Virus record (IMG/VR): IMGVR_UViG_3300046507_000271
Location: 1-54,222 of that record
Reading direction: 5' to 3' (one strand)
Origin: a virus
Length of the DNA stretch: 54,222 nt
The notes below the pieces were generated by a model. The model was not told the DNA's origin and ran no database searches. It saw nothing but the letters and a program-made list of their open reading frames with translations. This document shows positions 5,025-38,558 of this stretch, piece by piece. Each line of letters begins with the position of its first letter. Position 1 is the stretch's first letter. Both the position numbers and the translations under genes were made by a program.

Positions 5025-6716
5025 ATGAAGAAAATTCTTATCGCTCTGACAGCGCTGCTGTTCTCTGTGCAGGCTAGTGCGCAATTTACCGCAGGCCAGG
5101 TCTTATCGGCCGCAGCGCTCAACAGCGCCCTCGCTGCAAAGACCACTAACGCCTCTGCGGCTATTACAGGCGGCACGATTACGGGGCTGTCTGCGCCGAT
5201 TGGCTTCGCTAATACTCCGGCAGCGACCGGTACGACTAGCCAGCTTCAGTATCTGCAAGGGGCAACTGGGAGTGTCGCTCGGTCGCTGACGAGTGTTTTC
5301 CAGGATTCAATTAGTCTGCTCGACTTCGGCGCTGACCCCACTGGCGTGACTGATAGCTCTATCGCTTTCAGTAATTTCATAGCCGCCGTTAAGACGACGG
5401 GTCGCGCTGGGCACATGCCGGCGGGAACCTACAAGATCAACACCGCTCAGGTTATCGATTTAGCATCGATCTCGCCAAAAGGCATCTACATTTACGGCGA
5501 TGGTCAATATCAGACCATGCTCGACCTGACGTCGGTGTCTGCATCGCCCGCATTTTCGATCATTGATACTGGCAACGCGGGCGGCGGTGGTTTTTACAGC
5601 ACCTTCGCTAACTTCGGCATAAAGGGGAACATTGCAGGAACACTGCTGCAGATAGGCAAAACCGACTTCAGCGATGCGCTTAACGAATTCAAGTTCGATA
5701 ATTTGTGGATCGGCAATAACAGCGCATCGGCATCAGCGATCGGGATTCAGGTCAACTACGTTCTCAATACGCACTTCAATGCAGTCATCGCGGCCAACAA
5801 CGGGCACGGTGATGCGTGGCAGATAAATGCCGGAGCGTTCAACATCTGGGCCGGCGGTTCAGGTACATATGGCGATAATGGCTATCATCTAACGGCGGGT
5901 GGACCGGGAACCGGAGCGATCGCGGGCAACACGTTCATTGGCATCGATCACGAAGTCAATGCCGTGAACGATGTCAAGATCGACACGGCAAATGCGCAGG
6001 GGAATACTTGGATCGGCGGCACATTCGTCTATACACCCGGTACAACCTACGCTTTCGCGGCGAGCGCCGGATCGGACAATACGATCATTTCGCCGATGAC
6101 GCTCGGGTATCCGAGCGGTACGCCAAACTATGCGAACTTTTTCAATGGGAGCATTGGTGTTTCTCTCGTCAACAAGTTCAGTCAGGCTACCTTTTACGGT
6201 GGCACTATTAATTCGAGTGCGCCGAATTCGAGTTCCCGAGGTGTGTTCCTTCAAACGAATGGCAGTAATCGATGGGGGTCTTACGCTACGTCACAGACGG
6301 AATCAGGCGGGAACGCCGGAAGCAATTTCAGTATTTCTCGATATAACGATTCTGGCGTCTTCATCGATAGCCCAATCGGCATCACGCGTTCTAGCGGTTT
6401 GGTGAATATCAATGATGGGCTGGCGGTAAATGGCTCAATAACAGCATCGACAACGGGCGCGATGCCTCTCTACGGCACGACTGGCACTGGCGTAAATGCA
6501 CCGCATATTATTACAGGAAGCGTTGCGCTATCGTCTGGCAGCGCAACTGTGACGCTAAGCAGCTCGGCTGTATTCACGTCATCGTCCACCTACACGTGCA
6601 CGGCAAACGACGCGACTGCAGCAAACGCCGTGAAGATCGGTCAGACATCTGGTACGTCGATCACTTTCACTGGGACGAGCACGGATACCGTGCAGTTCAT
6701 GTGCGCCGGTAACTAG
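5025..6716 (+). CDS. Right-handed beta-helix (pectate-lyase-fold) protein with a Sec-type signal peptide; putative polysaccharide depolymerase or tailspike
   Basis: 563 aa. The N-terminus MKKILIALTALLFSVQASA|Q is a canonical signal peptide. SLLDFGADPTGVTDSSIAFSNFIAA is the pectate-lyase-superfamily entry motif. GC looks lower than in the neighbours by eye. Two terminators follow the gene. Confidence 0.6.
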   Translation: MKKILIALTALLFSVQASAQFTAGQVLSAAALNSALAAKTTNASAAITGGTITGLSAPIGFANTPAATGTTSQLQYLQGATGSVARSLTSVFQDSISLLDFGADPTGVTDSSIAFSNFIAAVKTTGRAGHMPAGTYKINTAQVIDLASISPKGIYIYGDGQYQTMLDLTSVSASPAFSIIDTGNAGGGGFYSTFANFGIKGNIAGTLLQIGKTDFSDALNEFKFDNLWIGNNSASASAIGIQVNYVLNTHFNAVIAANNGHGDAWQINAGAFNIWAGGSGTYGDNGYHLTAGGPGTGAIAGNTFIGIDHEVNAVNDVKIDTANAQGNTWIGGTFVYTPGTTYAFAASAGSDNTIISPMTLGYPSGTPNYANFFNGSIGVSLVNKFSQATFYGGTINSSAPNSSSRGVFLQTNGSNRWGSYATSQTESGGNAGSNFSISRYNDSGVFIDSPIGITRSSGLVNINDGLAVNGSITASTTGAMPLYGTTGTGVNAPHIITGSVALSSGSATVTLSSSAVFTSSSTYTCTANDATAANAVKIGQTSGTSITFTGTSTDTVQFMCAGN

Positions 6717-16408: not shown

Positions 16409-16594
16409 TGCGACTGTACCAAATTCGTACCAATCGCCCGCAGAGCCTTATTCTATAAGGGTGCTTGGTGCCCAGGAGAGGACACTTATCCGGTATCCGT
16501 TGACCGTCAAACCCTGATGTAACCGTGCTTTACGGATACTATCATGGTATCATTTGGTCGATTTTAGAGTGCGACTGTACCAACTGCTGTACCA
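16409..16594. repeat. attP-arm-type direct repeats flanking an operator palindrome
   Basis: TGCGACTGTACCAA occurs at 16409-16422 and 16570-16583. Each copy is followed 4-5 nt later by GTACCA (16427-16432 and 16589-16594). Lies directly upstream of int. Confidence 0.45.
16535..16551. promoter_or_regulatory. Operator palindrome GATAC-N7-GTATC next to int
   Basis: Perfect copy gatactatcatggtatc. On the + strand it supplies a TATCAT -10-like hexamer ~75 nt upstream of the int start. Confidence 0.5.
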
Positions 16595-16628
16595 GGTGCC
16601 GTCGCCAAACAAAAAGGAACCGGAAAAC

Positions 16629-17639
16629 GTGGCGACATACCAGAAGCGCGGCGAGAGCTGGCGCGCAATCGTGCGCAAGGCGGGGCATAAGCCCGTGAGC
16701 GCATCATTCAACACCAAGCCCGAGGCGGTGGCGTGGGCGACCGCTACTGAGGCAAAGCTGAACGAAGGTGGTCAGGTTGTCGACGACAACACCGTCACCC
16801 TGCCGACAGTCTCAAAGCTATTGACTCGCTATGCCCTTGAGGTTAGCCCGACGAAGCGGGGCGAGCGTTGGGAGGTTATGCGGCTTGAAATGCTTGCCCG
16901 TAATTTTCAGGTCTTCCAGAAGCCGCTTTCCCGATTCTCTCCGCAAGATGTGGCTGATTGGCGCGATGACCGATTGAGCGTCGTTTCCGCTTCGTCCGTC
17001 AATCGAGAACTGAACCTTATTTCGGCCGTGTTCACGACTGCGATCAAGGAATGGCGCATGCCTCTCAAGGAAAACCCGGTGCATCTGATCCGCCGGCCAA
17101 AGAGCGCGCGCCCGCGCAAGCGCCGCGTGGATAACACAGAAATCCAGACGATGTGCAATGCGCTCGGTTGGGACATGAAGGCAACGCCGGAGATTTCCAA
17201 GCACCTGATCGCCTGGTCATTCGTCTTCGCCGTCGAAACGGCAATGCGCCGCGGCGAGATCCTGAACATTCGGCATCGCGACGTCAACATCGCCGAGCGC
17301 TATATCCATCTGCCGCAGACGAAGAACGACGACGCGCGCAACGTTCCCCTGTCCACGCGTGCCGTTGATCTGCTTTCGCTGCTTGCGAAGGGCCGGCCAG
17401 ATGATTTTCTGGTGCCAGTGAATGCCGGATCATTCGATACTCTGTTCCGCGAGGCGAAAAAAAAGGCCGGATTGACCGACCTGCATTTCCACGACTCGCG
17501 CCGCGAAGCTGCGACGCGCATGTCCAAGTTGCTGCCGAACGTTTTAGAACTGTCGGCGGTGACAGGGCACAAGACCCTCAAGATGCTGCAAATCTACTAT
17601 GAGCCGAAGGCGACGGACATCGCCGCCAAGCTCGGTTAG
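16629..17639 (+). CDS. int: Tyrosine recombinase / phage integrase
   Basis: GTG 16629 with AAGGAA 9 nt upstream. N-terminus ATYQKRGESWRAIVRK. C-terminal catalytic region HFHDSRREAATRM...VTGHKTLKMLQIYY (R..HxxR..Y). Confidence 0.9.
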   Translation: MATYQKRGESWRAIVRKAGHKPVSASFNTKPEAVAWATATEAKLNEGGQVVDDNTVTLPTVSKLLTRYALEVSPTKRGERWEVMRLEMLARNFQVFQKPLSRFSPQDVADWRDDRLSVVSASSVNRELNLISAVFTTAIKEWRMPLKENPVHLIRRPKSARPRKRRVDNTEIQTMCNALGWDMKATPEISKHLIAWSFVFAVETAMRRGEILNIRHRDVNIAERYIHLPQTKNDDARNVPLSTRAVDLLSLLAKGRPDDFLVPVNAGSFDTLFREAKKKAGLTDLHFHDSRREAATRMSKLLPNVLELSAVTGHKTLKMLQIYYEPKATDIAAKLG

Positions 17640-34611: not shown

Positions 34612-35259
34612 TCATGCCTGAGCTAGCTGCGGAATCGACGCGAGCATCGCGTCCAGCGATCCAGCCCGCGTGAAGGTCAGTTGTGGATTGTCCGAGCCGC
34701 CGAGCATGACGCGCTTGGCCTGTTCAGCGTGTCCGATCAGCACTGGCGGATGGCTCTTGTGGCCGGCGCGATTGTTCTGCGACTCAGAAATTCCGGTCAG
34801 CACGCGCTGGTATTCCGGCGTCTCGTTACGCATCTTGTATCCGCGATAGCGGTTCTCGAACTCTTTCGCGACGAAGGGCCATTCCTTCTCGTCTTTACCG
34901 CCAACCTGCACCCATCCGCCCATGTCCATGATGACGCGGTGAATGATCGGATCGTCAAAGACAACGCTGTTATATGTTCCGCAGGATCTCACTGCGCGGT
35001 CTACTTTTGCCCATGCCACAAGGGCCGAATCCTGTGTCGAGCCTTGCAGCATCTTCACCACGTCGGCGGGCTTCGGTGCAAACTGGCCGCTATCCGGGTT
35101 CACGCAATGCCGGTTGAGCGCGTCAGCCACGGCGCGGTAGTCGTATGGCTTCATGGCCTCCCACCAGACATTCCCGCCGAACTCGGATAGGTCTTTACCA
35201 TAGAACGCCTGGACGTCTGCAATAAGTGCGATAAAAGCGGCGTGTTCGTTCGTGTTCAT
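34612..35259 (-). CDS. Replication-module protein (helicase-loader position)
   Basis: ATGA-coupled ATG 35259. 215 aa. Directly downstream of the initiator gene. No recognisable ATPase motif. Confidence 0.45.
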   Translation of the reverse strand: MNTNEHAAFIALIADVQAFYGKDLSEFGGNVWWEAMKPYDYRAVADALNRHCVNPDSGQFAPKPADVVKMLQGSTQDSALVAWAKVDRAVRSCGTYNSVVFDDPIIHRVIMDMGGWVQVGGKDEKEWPFVAKEFENRYRGYKMRNETPEYQRVLTGISESQNNRAGHKSHPPVLIGHAEQAKRVMLGGSDNPQLTFTRAGSLDAMLASIPQLAQA

Positions 35260-36116
35260 TGATGCGCCTCTCCATGCTGTGCCTGAAATTTCGCGGAGAG
35301 CCGCGCCGCAACTTCGCGGTTGCGGGCCTCCAGCGCCTCTTGCTTGTTGAGAGGCTGCGCACCTGACCGGACCGCTGCGCCGGTCGTTGCGCCGCCCCGC
35401 TGCACCCAATCCGCCCTGAATCCCGCCCAATTTGCCTGTACCGCGTAATGCACCGCATCGGCCGGCGACATGTCGACCTTTTGTGCCTCAGCCTTTACGC
35501 CATCCCACGCGGTTTGCGTGAGAGGCAGGCGCTTTGCTTTGCGAAGCGTGAGCCAGTCGGCGGCGACCTGCTTGTCTACGCCGTCGTTCGATAACTCATC
35601 GACCCCGAGTGATGACGGTGCAGCGCTGCGCGAGCGCGGCGCCTTTCTTTGTGTAGTCTCTGTAGTAGTCTCTGTTCTATATAGGAATGCGGTGGAATTT
35701 TCCGCATGGTCCGGTGGATTCTTCCGCATGGTGCGGTGGAATTTTCCGCATTGAGGTGCGGTGGAATTTTCCGCATTGCCTTCCGGCGCATTGCTTATAT
35801 CGTCCAGGCGGTCGTAGTTAATCGCGTAGTAGTTCGTCCGGTTCGCTGTGTCTGTTGCGAGCGTTTCGACGTCCAGTAGTCCCTCGGCGCGCAGCTTCGC
35901 GACGATCTTGCGGATAGACTCTGGTTTCCAGAACGGAAACTGCTCAGCCCATTCCTTATACGTGTTGTAGACCCACTTGCGGCCATTGCGCACGGTCTTG
36001 CTGTGAGCGGCCCAATAGTGGATCTGCTGCAAGACAATTGCCTCCTGCAGCCCGATTTTGCAGGCGAGGGTAGGGGAAACGACGAGCGGGGGCTCGTCGA
36101 ATAGCAGGGCTCTCAT
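35256..36116 (-). CDS. Replication initiator / replisome organizer (lambda O-like) with a DnaT-like C-terminal domain
   Basis: N-terminal wHTH LQEAIVLQQIHYWAAH...ESIRKIVAKLRAEGLL. C-terminal WLTLRKAKRLPLTQTAWDGVKAEAQK...ANWAGFRADW. Iterons lie inside the linker. Confidence 0.65.
   Translation of the reverse strand: MRALLFDEPPLVVSPTLACKIGLQEAIVLQQIHYWAAHSKTVRNGRKWVYNTYKEWAEQFPFWKPESIRKIVAKLRAEGLLDVETLATDTANRTNYYAINYDRLDDISNAPEGNAENSTAPQCGKFHRTMRKNPPDHAENSTAFLYRTETTTETTQRKAPRSRSAAPSSLGVDELSNDGVDKQVAADWLTLRKAKRLPLTQTAWDGVKAEAQKVDMSPADAVHYAVQANWAGFRADWVQRGGATTGAAVRSGAQPLNKQEALEARNREVAARLSAKFQAQHGEAHQ
35689..35776. repeat. Origin iterons: four copies of (G/C)CGGTGGA(A/T)T(T/C)TTCCGCAT
   Basis: Copies at 35689-35707, 35711-35729, 35733-35751 and 35758-35776, with spacing 22, 22 and 25 bp. 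Preceded by a TAGTCTCTGT direct repeat and an AT-rich ttctatatagg. Confidence 0.7.
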
Positions 36117-36147: not shown

Positions 36148-36468
36148 TCATTGGTCGTCCTGTTCGGTTCGTTCGGCTGCGACGGCCGGCAGATCGGGGA
36201 TTGCTTCGATGACGGCCGGGCCGCGCGCTTTGCCGACGAGCTTCGGCATTTCGTGACGCAGGCCGATCATGTCGATGACGGTCAGGTGCGGCTTGTTCGG
36301 TCCAACTAACTGCGCGCTGACTCGTGCGAATTCGAGCGCGCGTTTCTTGCCGACCACCTTGTGACCGTTGCGGATGTTGCTCCAGTAGATCGGGCCAATG
36401 CCGATGTGGTCGAGCAACTGGTTCACTACCTTCGCCCCGTATGCATCGTGAAATTCTTGTGCGTTCAA
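36148..36468 (-). CDS. Cro/CII-type HTH regulator of the leftward early operon
   Basis: TTG 36468 lies 7 nt after AAGGAG. IGPIYWSNIRNGHKVVGKKRALEFARV is HTH-like. Divergent from the CI-like gene. Confidence 0.5.
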   Translation of the reverse strand: MNAQEFHDAYGAKVVNQLLDHIGIGPIYWSNIRNGHKVVGKKRALEFARVSAQLVGPNKPHLTVIDMIGLRHEMPKLVGKARGPAVIEAIPDLPAVAAERTEQDDQ

Positions 36469-36525
36469 TTCATGGCTCCTTTGCCGGGTTATAATTGCAA
36501 TACAGTATAGCATCGGATACCGTGA

Positions 36526-36542
36526 CGGTTAGCGTTTAGGAT
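36526..36542. promoter_or_regulatory. Degenerate operator copy in the immunity intergenic region
   Basis: ggataccgtgacggttagc. The left half plus spacer match the 10705 copy and the right half is degenerate. A TATACT -10-like hexamer lies 8 nt downstream on the minus strand. Confidence 0.45.
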
Positions 36543-36566
36543 GAAATTTTGTCGGGAGATAACCCT

Positions 36567-36686
36567 ATGAACTTATTGAAAAATGATGCCTTTACGGTTG
36601 CATTGGCAGCCGGAAACCTTCAAGATTTCACGAATGGATGCCGCGATTTAATCGGGACAGGCATCCGACCAAGTGGCGTGCCTTGA
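36567..36686 (+). CDS. Possible 39-aa leader ORF upstream of the CI-like gene
   Basis: ATG 36567 lies 8 nt after GGAG. MNLLKNDAFTVALAAGNLQDFTNGCRDLIGTGIRPSGVP. Confidence 0.3.
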   Translation: MNLLKNDAFTVALAAGNLQDFTNGCRDLIGTGIRPSGVP

Positions 36687-36718
36687 CGCGCCCTATACGA
36701 CTAAGGATTGGGAATCAC

Positions 36719-37156
36719 ATGGCTATCGAAACGATCGATGCATTGCGCGCACGAAACTTCCACCTGCTTTTCGAGCAGTTCAAGGAAGGGGTGAGAAGGG
36801 ATGACCCGACCGCGCCCGATCGGGGAATGCTGAGGCGCTTCGCTGCGCACCTGGAAATGAACCCCGTCTACCTGTCGAACCTGAACACAGGCTCGAAGAC
36901 GATCGGACTGCGGACGGCGCGCGAGATTGAGTCCCGGCTGAAGCTGCCGGAAGGCTGGATGGACACGGACCACAGCAACAACGAAGCCGAGATGAGCGAT
37001 GACGACCTGGCGTTCCGGGATTCGGTCATGGCGATGTACCGGCAGGCGCCCGAGGCGTCGCGCGCGGCCGTTCTCCGGGTGCTTCAGGCTCTTGTCCTGG
37101 GTAAACCCATAGAGGACGTACTTTCTACCGACAAATCCCGCAAGAAAGCGAATTAG
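36719..37156 (+). CDS. CI-type repressor (HTH only, no S24 peptidase domain)
   Basis: ATG 36719 with an AAGGA RBS. FAAHLEMNPVYLSNLNTGSKTIGLRTAREIESRLKLPEGWMD is a phage-CI-type HTH. The whole protein is 145 aa. Confidence 0.6.
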   Translation: MAIETIDALRARNFHLLFEQFKEGVRRDDPTAPDRGMLRRFAAHLEMNPVYLSNLNTGSKTIGLRTAREIESRLKLPEGWMDTDHSNNEAEMSDDDLAFRDSVMAMYRQAPEASRAAVLRVLQALVLGKPIEDVLSTDKSRKKAN

Positions 37157-37311
37157 ACTCGCGCAAACATTTGCGGATTGTTGCAACCGCTGAAAATGTA
37201 AAATTTTGTATCGAAACTTGTTGCGTGCGCGGGACTGGTGCGGATACTCTTACGTCACCGCTTATCCGTTGCGGGAAAAGATACCGGTTTCGCAATCCTG
37301 AGAGGCACGAC

Positions 37312-37518
37312 ATGACGAGTTTTGGCACTGCTGGCAGTACAGAAAAAAACAATACTGCCGCTGGTGTACTGGCGGAAGGCTTACGCAGCGACGAGGGCGA
37401 ATACCAGATCGCCGCCGCTGCCGCAGCCATCCCAGCGCATATGCGCCGGGAGGTTCTGGCTCACTTGCACGAGCTTATTTGCGCCGATGCAACGCACACC
37501 GTGGCGGTATGCAAATAG
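37312..37518 (+). CDS. Hypothetical 68-aa protein downstream of the CI-like gene
   Basis: Internal ATG 37312. Upstream TTGCGT-16 bp-GATACT promoter-like pair at ~37231-37258. Confidence 0.3.
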   Translation: MTSFGTAGSTEKNNTAAGVLAEGLRSDEGEYQIAAAAAAIPAHMRREVLAHLHELICADATHTVAVCK

Positions 37519-37629
37519 TGCTTGCGATACTGTGAAGGTTTTGATACGATTTATCTAGCATGTCGTTTTTGCGTCTAGCGAGGCGGTGTGTTCATGTTGG
37601 TTCCGTTCGTAGATCCCCAGATCTACTTT

Positions 37630-37659
37630 CCGCTCTCCTGATGGATTGAGCGGCTTTTT
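37630..37659 (+). terminator. Rho-independent terminator
   Basis: Stem ccgctc/gagcgg followed by cttttt. Confidence 0.6.
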
Positions 37660-37668
37660 ACACTGTAG

Positions 37669-37707
37669 GCCCCTGTCTGATGCGAGTCGGCAGGGGCTTT
37701 GTGCTTT
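37669..37707 (+). terminator. Second hairpin with T-rich tail
   Basis: Stem gcccctg/caggggc followed by tttgtgcttt. Confidence 0.5.
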
Positions 37708-37718
37708 ATGGCTTCAAT

Positions 37719-37797
37719 TCCGCGAAACCCGAGCAAGGTGCATGGGCCTGACTGTTAATCAGTGGCTAGCTGAGTTCGATCCTCAGGCGCGGAGCCA
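37719..37797 (+). tRNA. tRNA-like gene with anticodon loop CU-GUU-AA (Asn) and several non-canonical positions
   Basis: Hand fold: acceptor TCCGCG(A)/(G)CGCGGA. D arm CCCG/TGGG with an 11-nt loop containing A14, G18G19 and A21. Anticodon stem CTGA/TCAG with loop CTGTTAA. T arm CTGAG-TTCGATC-CTCAG. Discriminator G followed by CCA. Anomalies: A at position 8, an A.G 7-66 pair, no position 26 and a 6-nt variable loop. Confidence 0.5.
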
Positions 37798-37799
37798 AC

Positions 37800-37824
37800 A
37801 CAAAAAGCCAGCGCAAGGCTGGCT
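37800..37824 (-). terminator. Rho-independent terminator of the short leftward unit
   Basis: Minus strand reads agccagc cttgc gctggct followed by ttttt. Confidence 0.55.
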
Positions 37825-38013
37825 CTCTGCGATCTATAACCGCAGCACAGGATTCCTCTGCAAGCGCGCCGTCATGGCGACCGCCTACGCGCAGATGCGT
37901 TCTCTTTCTCGCCGATCGGTTGGTGGACTACCGACCGGCTGACGTAATAAGCGGCGATGCAGGTTGGTCGAGTTCATGGCTTCCGTTCCTTATGGTTGTG
38001 ACTTCGCGGTGAT

Positions 38014-38142
38014 TCAGTCGCTGTCGGCGTCGCTATCGTCTGCGTCGTCGTCCAGCTCAGGCTCGCCATAGCTCTCGTCGCAATAGCGAGCGGCAACACG
38101 CGCAAGGTCGGATTCGCCTGCGGTGTCGAAAGCTGTTTTCAT
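38014..38142 (-). CDS. Very acidic 42-aa protein
   Basis: ATG 38142 is preceded by AGGAG. MKTAFDTAGESDLARVAARYCDESYGEPELDDDADDSDADSD. Absent from the ORF track because it is shorter than 60 aa. Confidence 0.4.
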   Translation of the reverse strand: MKTAFDTAGESDLARVAARYCDESYGEPELDDDADDSDADSD

Positions 38143-38276
38143 GGCGCACTCCTAATGATCCTGAGATACGTTGAAGAAGGCCCTAGGTGTTTCTGGTGCG
38201 CGCGCCCGATGAACGGGCGTCGTTGCTGCGATCCTGACGACAAACTCGATTGCCGTAGATCGGCACATGACCGAAT

Positions 38277-38293
38277 GATGCCATAACGGTATC
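38277..38293. promoter_or_regulatory. Operator copy with one mismatch (GATGC-N7-GTATC)
   Basis: gatgccataacggtatc followed by tttgagtgcgagaagttttt, a type-2-like flank. Upstream of the leftward acidic-protein unit. Confidence 0.45.
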
Positions 38294-38374
38294 TTTGAGT
38301 GCGAGAAGTTTTTGTTACAGGTTGTATTCGTGGATACTGTTGCGCGTTTTGTGTTCGCTGGCGCACATTGCACG

Positions 38375-38391
38375 GATACCGTGAAAGCATC
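38375..38391. promoter_or_regulatory. Operator copy with one mismatch (GATAC-N7-GCATC)
   Basis: gataccgtgaaagcatc preceded by TTGCAC. Upstream of the rightward unit starting at 38415. Confidence 0.45.
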
Positions 38392-38414
38392 TCGAATGGC
38401 TAGACGGAGGCCGC

Positions 38415-38558
38415 ATGAAGTTTGCCGCTTACATGATTTGCTGGCCGCTGCTCGGTGCGATGTGGGTTGCTGCTACCGTTGGCGACGCGGCGGGCGACGT
38501 CGTGTACTACCTGGATGACCTGACCGACAGGCTGCTTGAGTACTCGGAGGCGGAATGA
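38415..38558 (+). CDS. Small membrane protein (47 aa)
   Basis: ATG lies 4 nt after GGAGG. MKFAAYMICWPLLGAMWVAATVG has one TMD. ATGA overlap with the next ORF. Confidence 0.45.
   Translation: MKFAAYMICWPLLGAMWVAATVGDAAGDVVYYLDDLTDRLLEYSEAE

Follow-up and report, generated by a model that had tools for sequence, protein, structure and literature searches.

A solitary 79-nt segment that folds like a tRNA lies beside the immunity region of a temperate phage, and the question was whether it is a working tRNA-Asn gene, a captured fragment of a host gene or a decoy. The segment belongs to IMG/VR record IMGVR_UViG_3300046507_000271, a complete genome of 54,222 bp with terminal repeats and 59% GC, which was analyzed over its whole length and is called the window below.

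Genomic context of the element

The features around the element and the integrase of the phage were located as follows.

16554-17639, plus strand: tyrosine integrase (PF00589, 77 bits; phrog_1 integrase, 1e-50)
35256-36116, minus strand: O-like protein, replication initiation (replication-initiation PHROGs)
36638-37156, plus strand: CI-like repressor gene, 172 aa (phrog_5736, 1.6e-10, and phrog_12107, transcriptional regulator/repressor)
37171-37518, plus strand: ORF of 115 aa, 3' of the repressor gene, without PHROG or Pfam match
37630-37659, plus strand: terminator-like hairpin 1, then UUUUU (found by folding; sequence conserved in relatives)
37667-37709, plus strand: terminator 2, a GC-rich hairpin with a U-rich tract, left edge of the slot (z = -4.3 for 37625-37716)
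37719-37797, plus strand: predicted tRNA-Asn(GUU) gene of a non-canonical phage family, 76 nt plus encoded CCA, anticodon at 37754-37756
37799-37831, minus strand: intrinsic terminator of the convergent unit, right edge of the slot (z = -5.0; identical in relatives with other cargo)

The early and replication genes on the minus strand occupied 33-36 kb of the window, and the CI-like repressor gene, divergent from them, lay ~560 nt upstream of the tRNA element. This layout places the element just downstream of the immunity region, and no other match to the family model described below was found in the window; the description of a solitary gene beside the immunity region in the earlier note was accurate. 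The ORF between the repressor gene and the first hairpin is possibly the second gene of the repressor operon. To the right of the tRNA, genes for a methyltransferase, both terminase subunits, the portal, the major head protein and the tape measure protein were found. The large terminase subunit was 78-79% identical to prophage genes in two Burkholderiales genomes, which points to Burkholderiales as the likely host order; a search of three Burkholderiales genomes with related terminase genes gave no match to the repressor protein.

Folding supported the two plus-strand terminators that had been proposed upstream of the element, both being hairpins with U tracts, as well as the converging minus-strand terminator abutting its 3' end. 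These hairpins are missed by a rule-based terminator scan with loops of at most 8 nt. The pairing of the second terminator was kept through differing sequences in the relatives L209, L216 and L220. No sigma-70-like promoter was found in 36400-38500. On the minus strand, a convergent unit of very small ORFs (37832-38390) ended at the terminator that abuts the tRNA.

Structure of the element and calls by tRNA finders

The cloverleaf that had been folded by hand agreed with the sequence nucleotide for nucleotide. The acceptor stem pairs positions 1-7 with 66-72, including A7.G66, and is followed by A8 and A9; the D arm has a 4-bp stem and an 11-nt loop with A14 and G18G19, and nucleotide 26 is absent. 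In the anticodon arm, C27.U43 stands above four stem pairs and the loop is CUGUUAA with the anticodon GTT. The 3' part consists of a 6-nt variable loop, a 5-bp T stem with the loop TTCGATC, the discriminator G73 and an encoded CCA. Most universal positions of tRNA were present as had been listed, the elbow and core nucleotides A14, G18G19, U33, G53, T54, U55, C56, A58 and C61 all being found in the window's copy. The listed anomalies were equally real: of the general tRNA features U8, nucleotide 26, a paired 7:66 and a paired 27:43, none was found in the element. The single-sequence fold was unremarkable (z = -1.27).

A check with tRNA finders had been proposed, and its outcome was divided. 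ARAGORN with default settings found no tRNA in the window; with the -ps option (threshold 95%) it called tRNA-Asn(gtt) on the same 79 bases and drew the same cloverleaf, which indicates that the element lies just under the default cut-off. Rfam gave no match at gathering thresholds and no tRNA match at E <= 10 on 301 bases, and RF00005 had no match against the whole record. This rejection is not valid as a refutation, since most members of the family, whose conservation is demonstrated, escape the same finders: among the matches listed, ARAGORN called 25 of 197 family loci and missed ~87%. In GenBank, tRNAscan-SE 2.0.12 is the named source for two annotations of a homologue as tRNA-Asn.

With a covariance model of the family, the element scored 103 bits over model positions 1-79, the window's copy being one row of the alignment behind that model. 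Apart from the score, membership was supported by 92-96% identity to the nearest family copies and by the presence of every family-invariant nucleotide in the window's copy.

Distribution and neighbours of the family

Based on a sensitive blastn search of cultured phages, full-length homologues with ~82% identity were detected in ~60 Acinetobacter phages and in Synechococcus phage BUCT-ZZ01. The Acinetobacter carriers were T4-like phages, and in KARL-1, Maestro and BUCT-ZZ01 the homologue lay within a tRNA cluster. ARAGORN called the BUCT-ZZ01 copy as tRNA-Asn and missed that of KARL-1, and in the Maestro record the neighbours were annotated as tRNAs and the homologue was left out. Homologous genes are already annotated as tRNA-Asn in the Acinetobacter phages Berthold (MN709128), Apostate (MN723850), Konradin (NC_049479), TAC1 (MK170160), P1 (OL960030) and CP14 (OP585105). 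They were homologous to the element over the whole 79 nt, with ~81-85% identity in the aligned part, and shared its D arm, anticodon arm, variable loop and Asn identity set. The Acinetobacter copies stand in tRNA clusters of lytic phages of 100-170 kb and are left unannotated in most sister records, whereas in this temperate phage of 54 kb the gene stands on its own, in a swap slot next to cI.

Pattern scans of IMG/VR yielded at least 197 family loci. Two patterns were used, one fixing the D arm only and the other fixing only the framework outside the D arm; part of the apparent invariance of the family stems from these patterns, and the invariance of a region counts only from the scan that left the region free. 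When one genome per species was scanned for ~185,000 prokaryote species, the signature was detected in 7 loci only, so the lineage is essentially viral. Three of these 7 loci were Burkholderia contigs or plasmids with large tRNA arrays. The arrays, on Burkholderia contigs and a plasmid of Candidatus Burkholderia crenata (L204, 3635-5002; L205, 5689-7938; L208, 6305-7995), comprised 12-19 tRNA genes, and their family tRNA-Asn was 90-92% identical to the window's copy.

Among the matches listed, 165 of the 197 family loci held at least five other tRNAs, and a second, canonical tRNA-Asn was called by ARAGORN in the fetched stretch of 28 of these 165. The family copy is therefore the only tRNA-Asn found in most of the tRNA-rich phages, as far as the fetched stretches go; the 28 loci that also hold a canonical gene suggest that the family copy may serve a function beyond that of a normal tRNA-Asn. 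Across 176 contexts, the commonest upstream neighbour of the family tRNA-Asn was tRNA-Asp. A general linkage of Asn with Tyr, both with GUN anticodons, was considered and rejected, tRNA-Tyr being the immediate neighbour in only 12 of the 176 contexts.

No description of this tRNA-Asn architecture was found by full-text search, within the limited literature that the search covered. Phage tRNA inventories and analyses of codon supply thus undercount tRNA-Asn, because ARAGORN at default settings misses ~87% of the copies listed and many GenBank records omit the gene.

Covariation and conserved departures from canonical tRNA

Structural statistics were obtained from an alignment of 122 distinct family sequences, drawn from the matches listed. 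Across these sequences 90.4% of cells were paired, and 15 of 23 pairs had changes on both sides. Double changes were recorded for five of the seven acceptor pairs, one D-stem pair, three anticodon-stem pairs and four T-stem pairs. The covariation score was 0.44, compared with 0.125 for shuffled controls (0 of 500 reached the observed score) and at most 0.07 for slid controls.

The earlier note had called the element divergent, in the sense of decayed, and this part did not hold, since all of the listed anomalies were conserved, covarying traits of the family. A8 was present in 122 of 122 sequences and A9 was invariant. Position 7:66 was unpaired in 117 of 122, mostly as G.A or A.A, with A.G in the window; 27:43 was never paired (C.U or C.A in all 122), and nucleotide 26 was absent. 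The variable loop of 6 nt ending in TAG was likewise a family trait, and the D arm, with its 11-nt loop, is class-II-like. The scan whose pattern did not constrain the D arm showed covariation in the D stem, from C10-G25 to U10-A25, and the motif AGCNNGGYGCA was kept in the D loop. This D loop, A8A9, C27.Y43 and the variable loop ending in TAG form the family signature, all of which was found in the window's copy.

Tertiary contacts left a record in the alignment as well. The pair T54:A58 swapped from UA to AU (98 versus 24 of the 122 sequences), and column 17 in the D loop paired with column 62 in the T loop (nucleotide 59) as AU, UA and CG in 104, 14 and 3 sequences, which predicts a Watson-Crick tertiary pair between nucleotides 17 and 59 that is extra relative to canonical tRNA. 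The pairs 13:22 and 10:25 tracked nucleotide 2 of the variable loop. These signals fit an L-shaped tRNA. From the D stem to the anticodon loop, the stack counts five layers, compared with six in canonical tRNA. An abundant natural tRNA of bacterial viruses breaks the near-universal rules of U8, nucleotide 26 and a six-layer anticodon arm and keeps a covarying L-shape, which makes it a good test case for the tolerance of translation towards the tRNA body.

The Asn identity reported for the element (GUU, G73 and the encoded CCA) was present in the window, as was U1-A72, and GUU and G73 were invariant in the family; U1-A72 was found in 120 and an encoded CCA in 114 of the 122 sequences. The identity set of bacterial AsnRS is G34, U35, U36 and G73, and U1-A72 is the GatCAB determinant in the indirect pathway (PMC9976931). 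Canonical bacterial tRNA-Asn(GUU), such as the two copies in Burkholderia aenigmatica LMG 13014 (L229), has the same CUGUUAA loop, G73, U1-A72 and CCA. Unlike the family, cellular tRNA-Asn has U8, a paired 7:66, G26, a standard D arm and a 5-nt variable region, and with the family model the cellular genes of Burkholderiales genomes and B. aenigmatica scored 45-46 bits compared with 103-104 for family members. The mismatch C27.U43 is not special to the phage lineage, as it also occurs in Burkholderia tRNA-Asn genes and 4-bp anticodon stems are present in 14.9% of bacterial tRNA-Asn (PMC13092985).

A terminator-flanked slot with exchangeable RNA cargo

Relatives of the slot were found via the repressor protein. 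Their flanks were 86-98% identical on both sides, and homology broke at ~37660-37713 on the left, depending on the relative, and at 37795-37801 on the right. The following cargo was found in place of, or next to, the tRNA-Asn.

L214, 3230-3313: tRNA-Tyr(gta)
L065 (more distant), 880-963: the same tRNA-Tyr, directly 5' of a family tRNA-Asn
L226, 5150-5225: a different tRNA-Asn(GUU)-like gene, 48.6 bits
L216, L218 and L219, ~5076-5160: tRNA-like RNA of ~85 nt
L209-L213, L220 and L221: apparently structured RNA of 230-545 nt without Rfam match (L209, 1483-2027; L210, 5077-5428; L213, 1212-1437; L220, 1192-1544)

Given these other RNAs in the same slot of relatives, the tRNA-Asn is interchangeable cargo between two terminators. 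The ~85-nt RNA had a 7-bp acceptor stem, a T arm with the loop TTCGATT and G73, followed by CCA in L218 and L219 and by TCA in L216, and a 10-bp hairpin stood in place of the D and anticodon arms. ARAGORN made no call on it, and Rfam, run on L216, made none either. For the alternative slot cargo, no Rfam family and no informative match among cultured phages was found.

Several details of the cargo were recorded. The slot tRNA-Tyr of L214 and L065 has the T loop GATCGTTAC, with A54 and U58 exchanged, a feature shared with one sub-branch of the family tRNA-Asn. The gene of L226 stands 3' of a repressor gene whose product is 48% identical, has A8A9, a short D arm and G26, and is missed by ARAGORN. 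The large cargo shares a hairpin with a GAAAGA loop followed by CGCTCTCA; the complement TGAGAGCG lies ~80 nt downstream, and a third copy lies near the 3' end. Two T-arm-like hairpins were seen in the cargo of L210, and an ORF of 66 codons in that of L209.

Discussion

Based on family membership, structure, identity nucleotides and position, the element is most probably an intact, functional elongator tRNA-Asn(GUU), one of a lineage of phage tRNA-Asn whose non-canonical body is conserved, and rides as cargo in an accessory slot. Counted against a functional tRNA-Asn were the two terminators directly upstream together with the lack of a sigma-70-like promoter, the lack of an Rfam tRNA match, and the anticodon arm that is one layer shorter than canonical.

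Two of the alternatives have next to no credibility. The failure with ARAGORN at default settings and with Rfam and the unremarkable fold would suit a decayed tRNA pseudogene or a chance cloverleaf, but the supposed defects are invariant or covarying across the 122 distinct copies and the window's copy holds all invariant positions; this candidate, disfavoured by the family covariation, is given next to no credence. The other takes the element for an attP site or for a piece captured from the host tRNA-Asn gene, which the integrase would use or which imprecise excision would have left behind. Genes for tRNAs are the target of many tyrosine integrases, and the phage does encode an enzyme of this type. 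However, the integrase lies 20 kb from the element, the element is full length, and its longest exact match to the tRNA-Asn of Burkholderiales genomes with related prophages, taken as stand-ins for the host, is 11 nt; distance and match length together put this reading out, as neither an adjacent integrase nor identity to the 3' part of a tRNA was found against these stand-ins. The same lineage also occurs in tRNA clusters of lytic phages and is almost absent from cellular genomes, and a lineage that is nearly confined to viruses and crosses host phyla argues against simple host capture. An origin as a captured host fragment, which the earlier note had offered, is thus extremely improbable.

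The remaining alternatives concern what the RNA is for. A mimic working outside translation, as a decoy or sponge that would take the place of host tRNA-Asn for a tRNA-directed factor of host or phage such as an anticodon nuclease, a modification enzyme or a toxin, would agree with a body that departs from every cellular tRNA-Asn around an exactly kept anticodon loop, with the 28 loci (among the matches listed) that hold a canonical tRNA-Asn as well, and with the presence, in the slot of relatives, of tRNA-like RNAs that lack a regular anticodon arm. Against it, the features for charging and for EF-Tu and the ribosome are conserved (G73, CCA, U1-A72, T arm, elbow pairs, U33, A37 and A38), and the family copy is the only tRNA-Asn found in ~83% of the tRNA-rich loci among the matches listed, so that a role as mimic seems improbable. 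Plain codon supply, in which a phage of 59% GC would use AAY codons more than a host of higher GC and the tRNA would have no link to defence, is unlikely, though a live rival. Asn makes up 3.6% of the codons, with AAC above AAT, as counted for the phage alone; sampled chromosome stretches of Burkholderiales, as candidates for the host, have ~58-66% GC; and tRNA-Tyr, found as alternative cargo, is likewise a reader of AT-rich codons. Supply gives no reason for the use of a phage-specific lineage of altered structure instead of a host-like copy, and it leaves the non-tRNA cargo in the same slot unexplained.

For a functional tRNA-Asn, the following course is inferred. The RNA would be made by read-through of the two terminators of the cI operon, or from a promoter that was not recognised, and RNase P would cut it at U(-1), with no need for CCA addition. 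AsnRS could charge it by way of GUU and G73; alternatively, a non-discriminating AspRS followed by GatCAB could do so by way of U1-A72. The charged tRNA would decode AAC and AAU. Most likely, Asn decoding would thereby become independent of the host tRNA-Asn, either as plain supply or as a backup against depletion or cleavage of the host tRNA.

Position -1 was U in 198 of 205 copies, with A before it in 195 of 205 (loci L003-L201). The conservation of this A-then-U before the mature 5' end was above that expected for RNase P context alone, and U(-1) could form a wobble pair with G73.

Phage tRNAs can rescue infection from tRNA-cleaving defences, as reported for the tRNA-Tyr of the T5 family against retron Eco7/PtuAB and for the tRNA-Lys of SP15 against PrrC170 (PMC11555353). 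By analogy, a backup or counter-defence role would be the most attractive purpose for the element. Like those tRNAs, it is a phage copy of one isoacceptor that could replace an attacked host tRNA, and a sister slot carries tRNA-Tyr. In contrast to those cases, no tRNA-Asn-directed defence was identified here. The anticodon loop does not differ from the one in cellular tRNA-Asn, so any escape from a nuclease would have to lie in the tRNA body.

We tentatively propose, as a possibility short of an even chance by some way, that a phage scaffold for tRNA-Asn was re-engineered with a short anticodon arm, A8, a purine-purine 7:66 and a 17:59 pair, and spread horizontally among phages of unrelated hosts. 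The altered body might evade tRNA-directed nucleases or tRNA-depleting defences and still be charged by either Asn pathway, and the gene might be one of several swappable RNA cassettes (tRNA-Asn, tRNA-Tyr, tRNA-like and structured RNAs) that occupy a slot next to the repressor gene dedicated to counter-defence.

In phage lambda, rexAB after cI marks an accessory ("moron") slot downstream of the repressor gene. The slot described here resembles it in that terminator-bounded accessory cargo stands directly 3' of the repressor, in the same orientation, and varies between close relatives. It differs in that the cargo consists of predicted small RNA genes instead of proteins. A slot on the cI side with swappable small-RNA cargo offers a testable system for the purpose of prophage-borne tRNAs.

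One family copy had an unusual anticodon loop. At L086 (4658-4806), ~69 nt with three small hairpins were inserted after CTG; the insert is too short for a group I intron and could be a mini-intron or a disruption.
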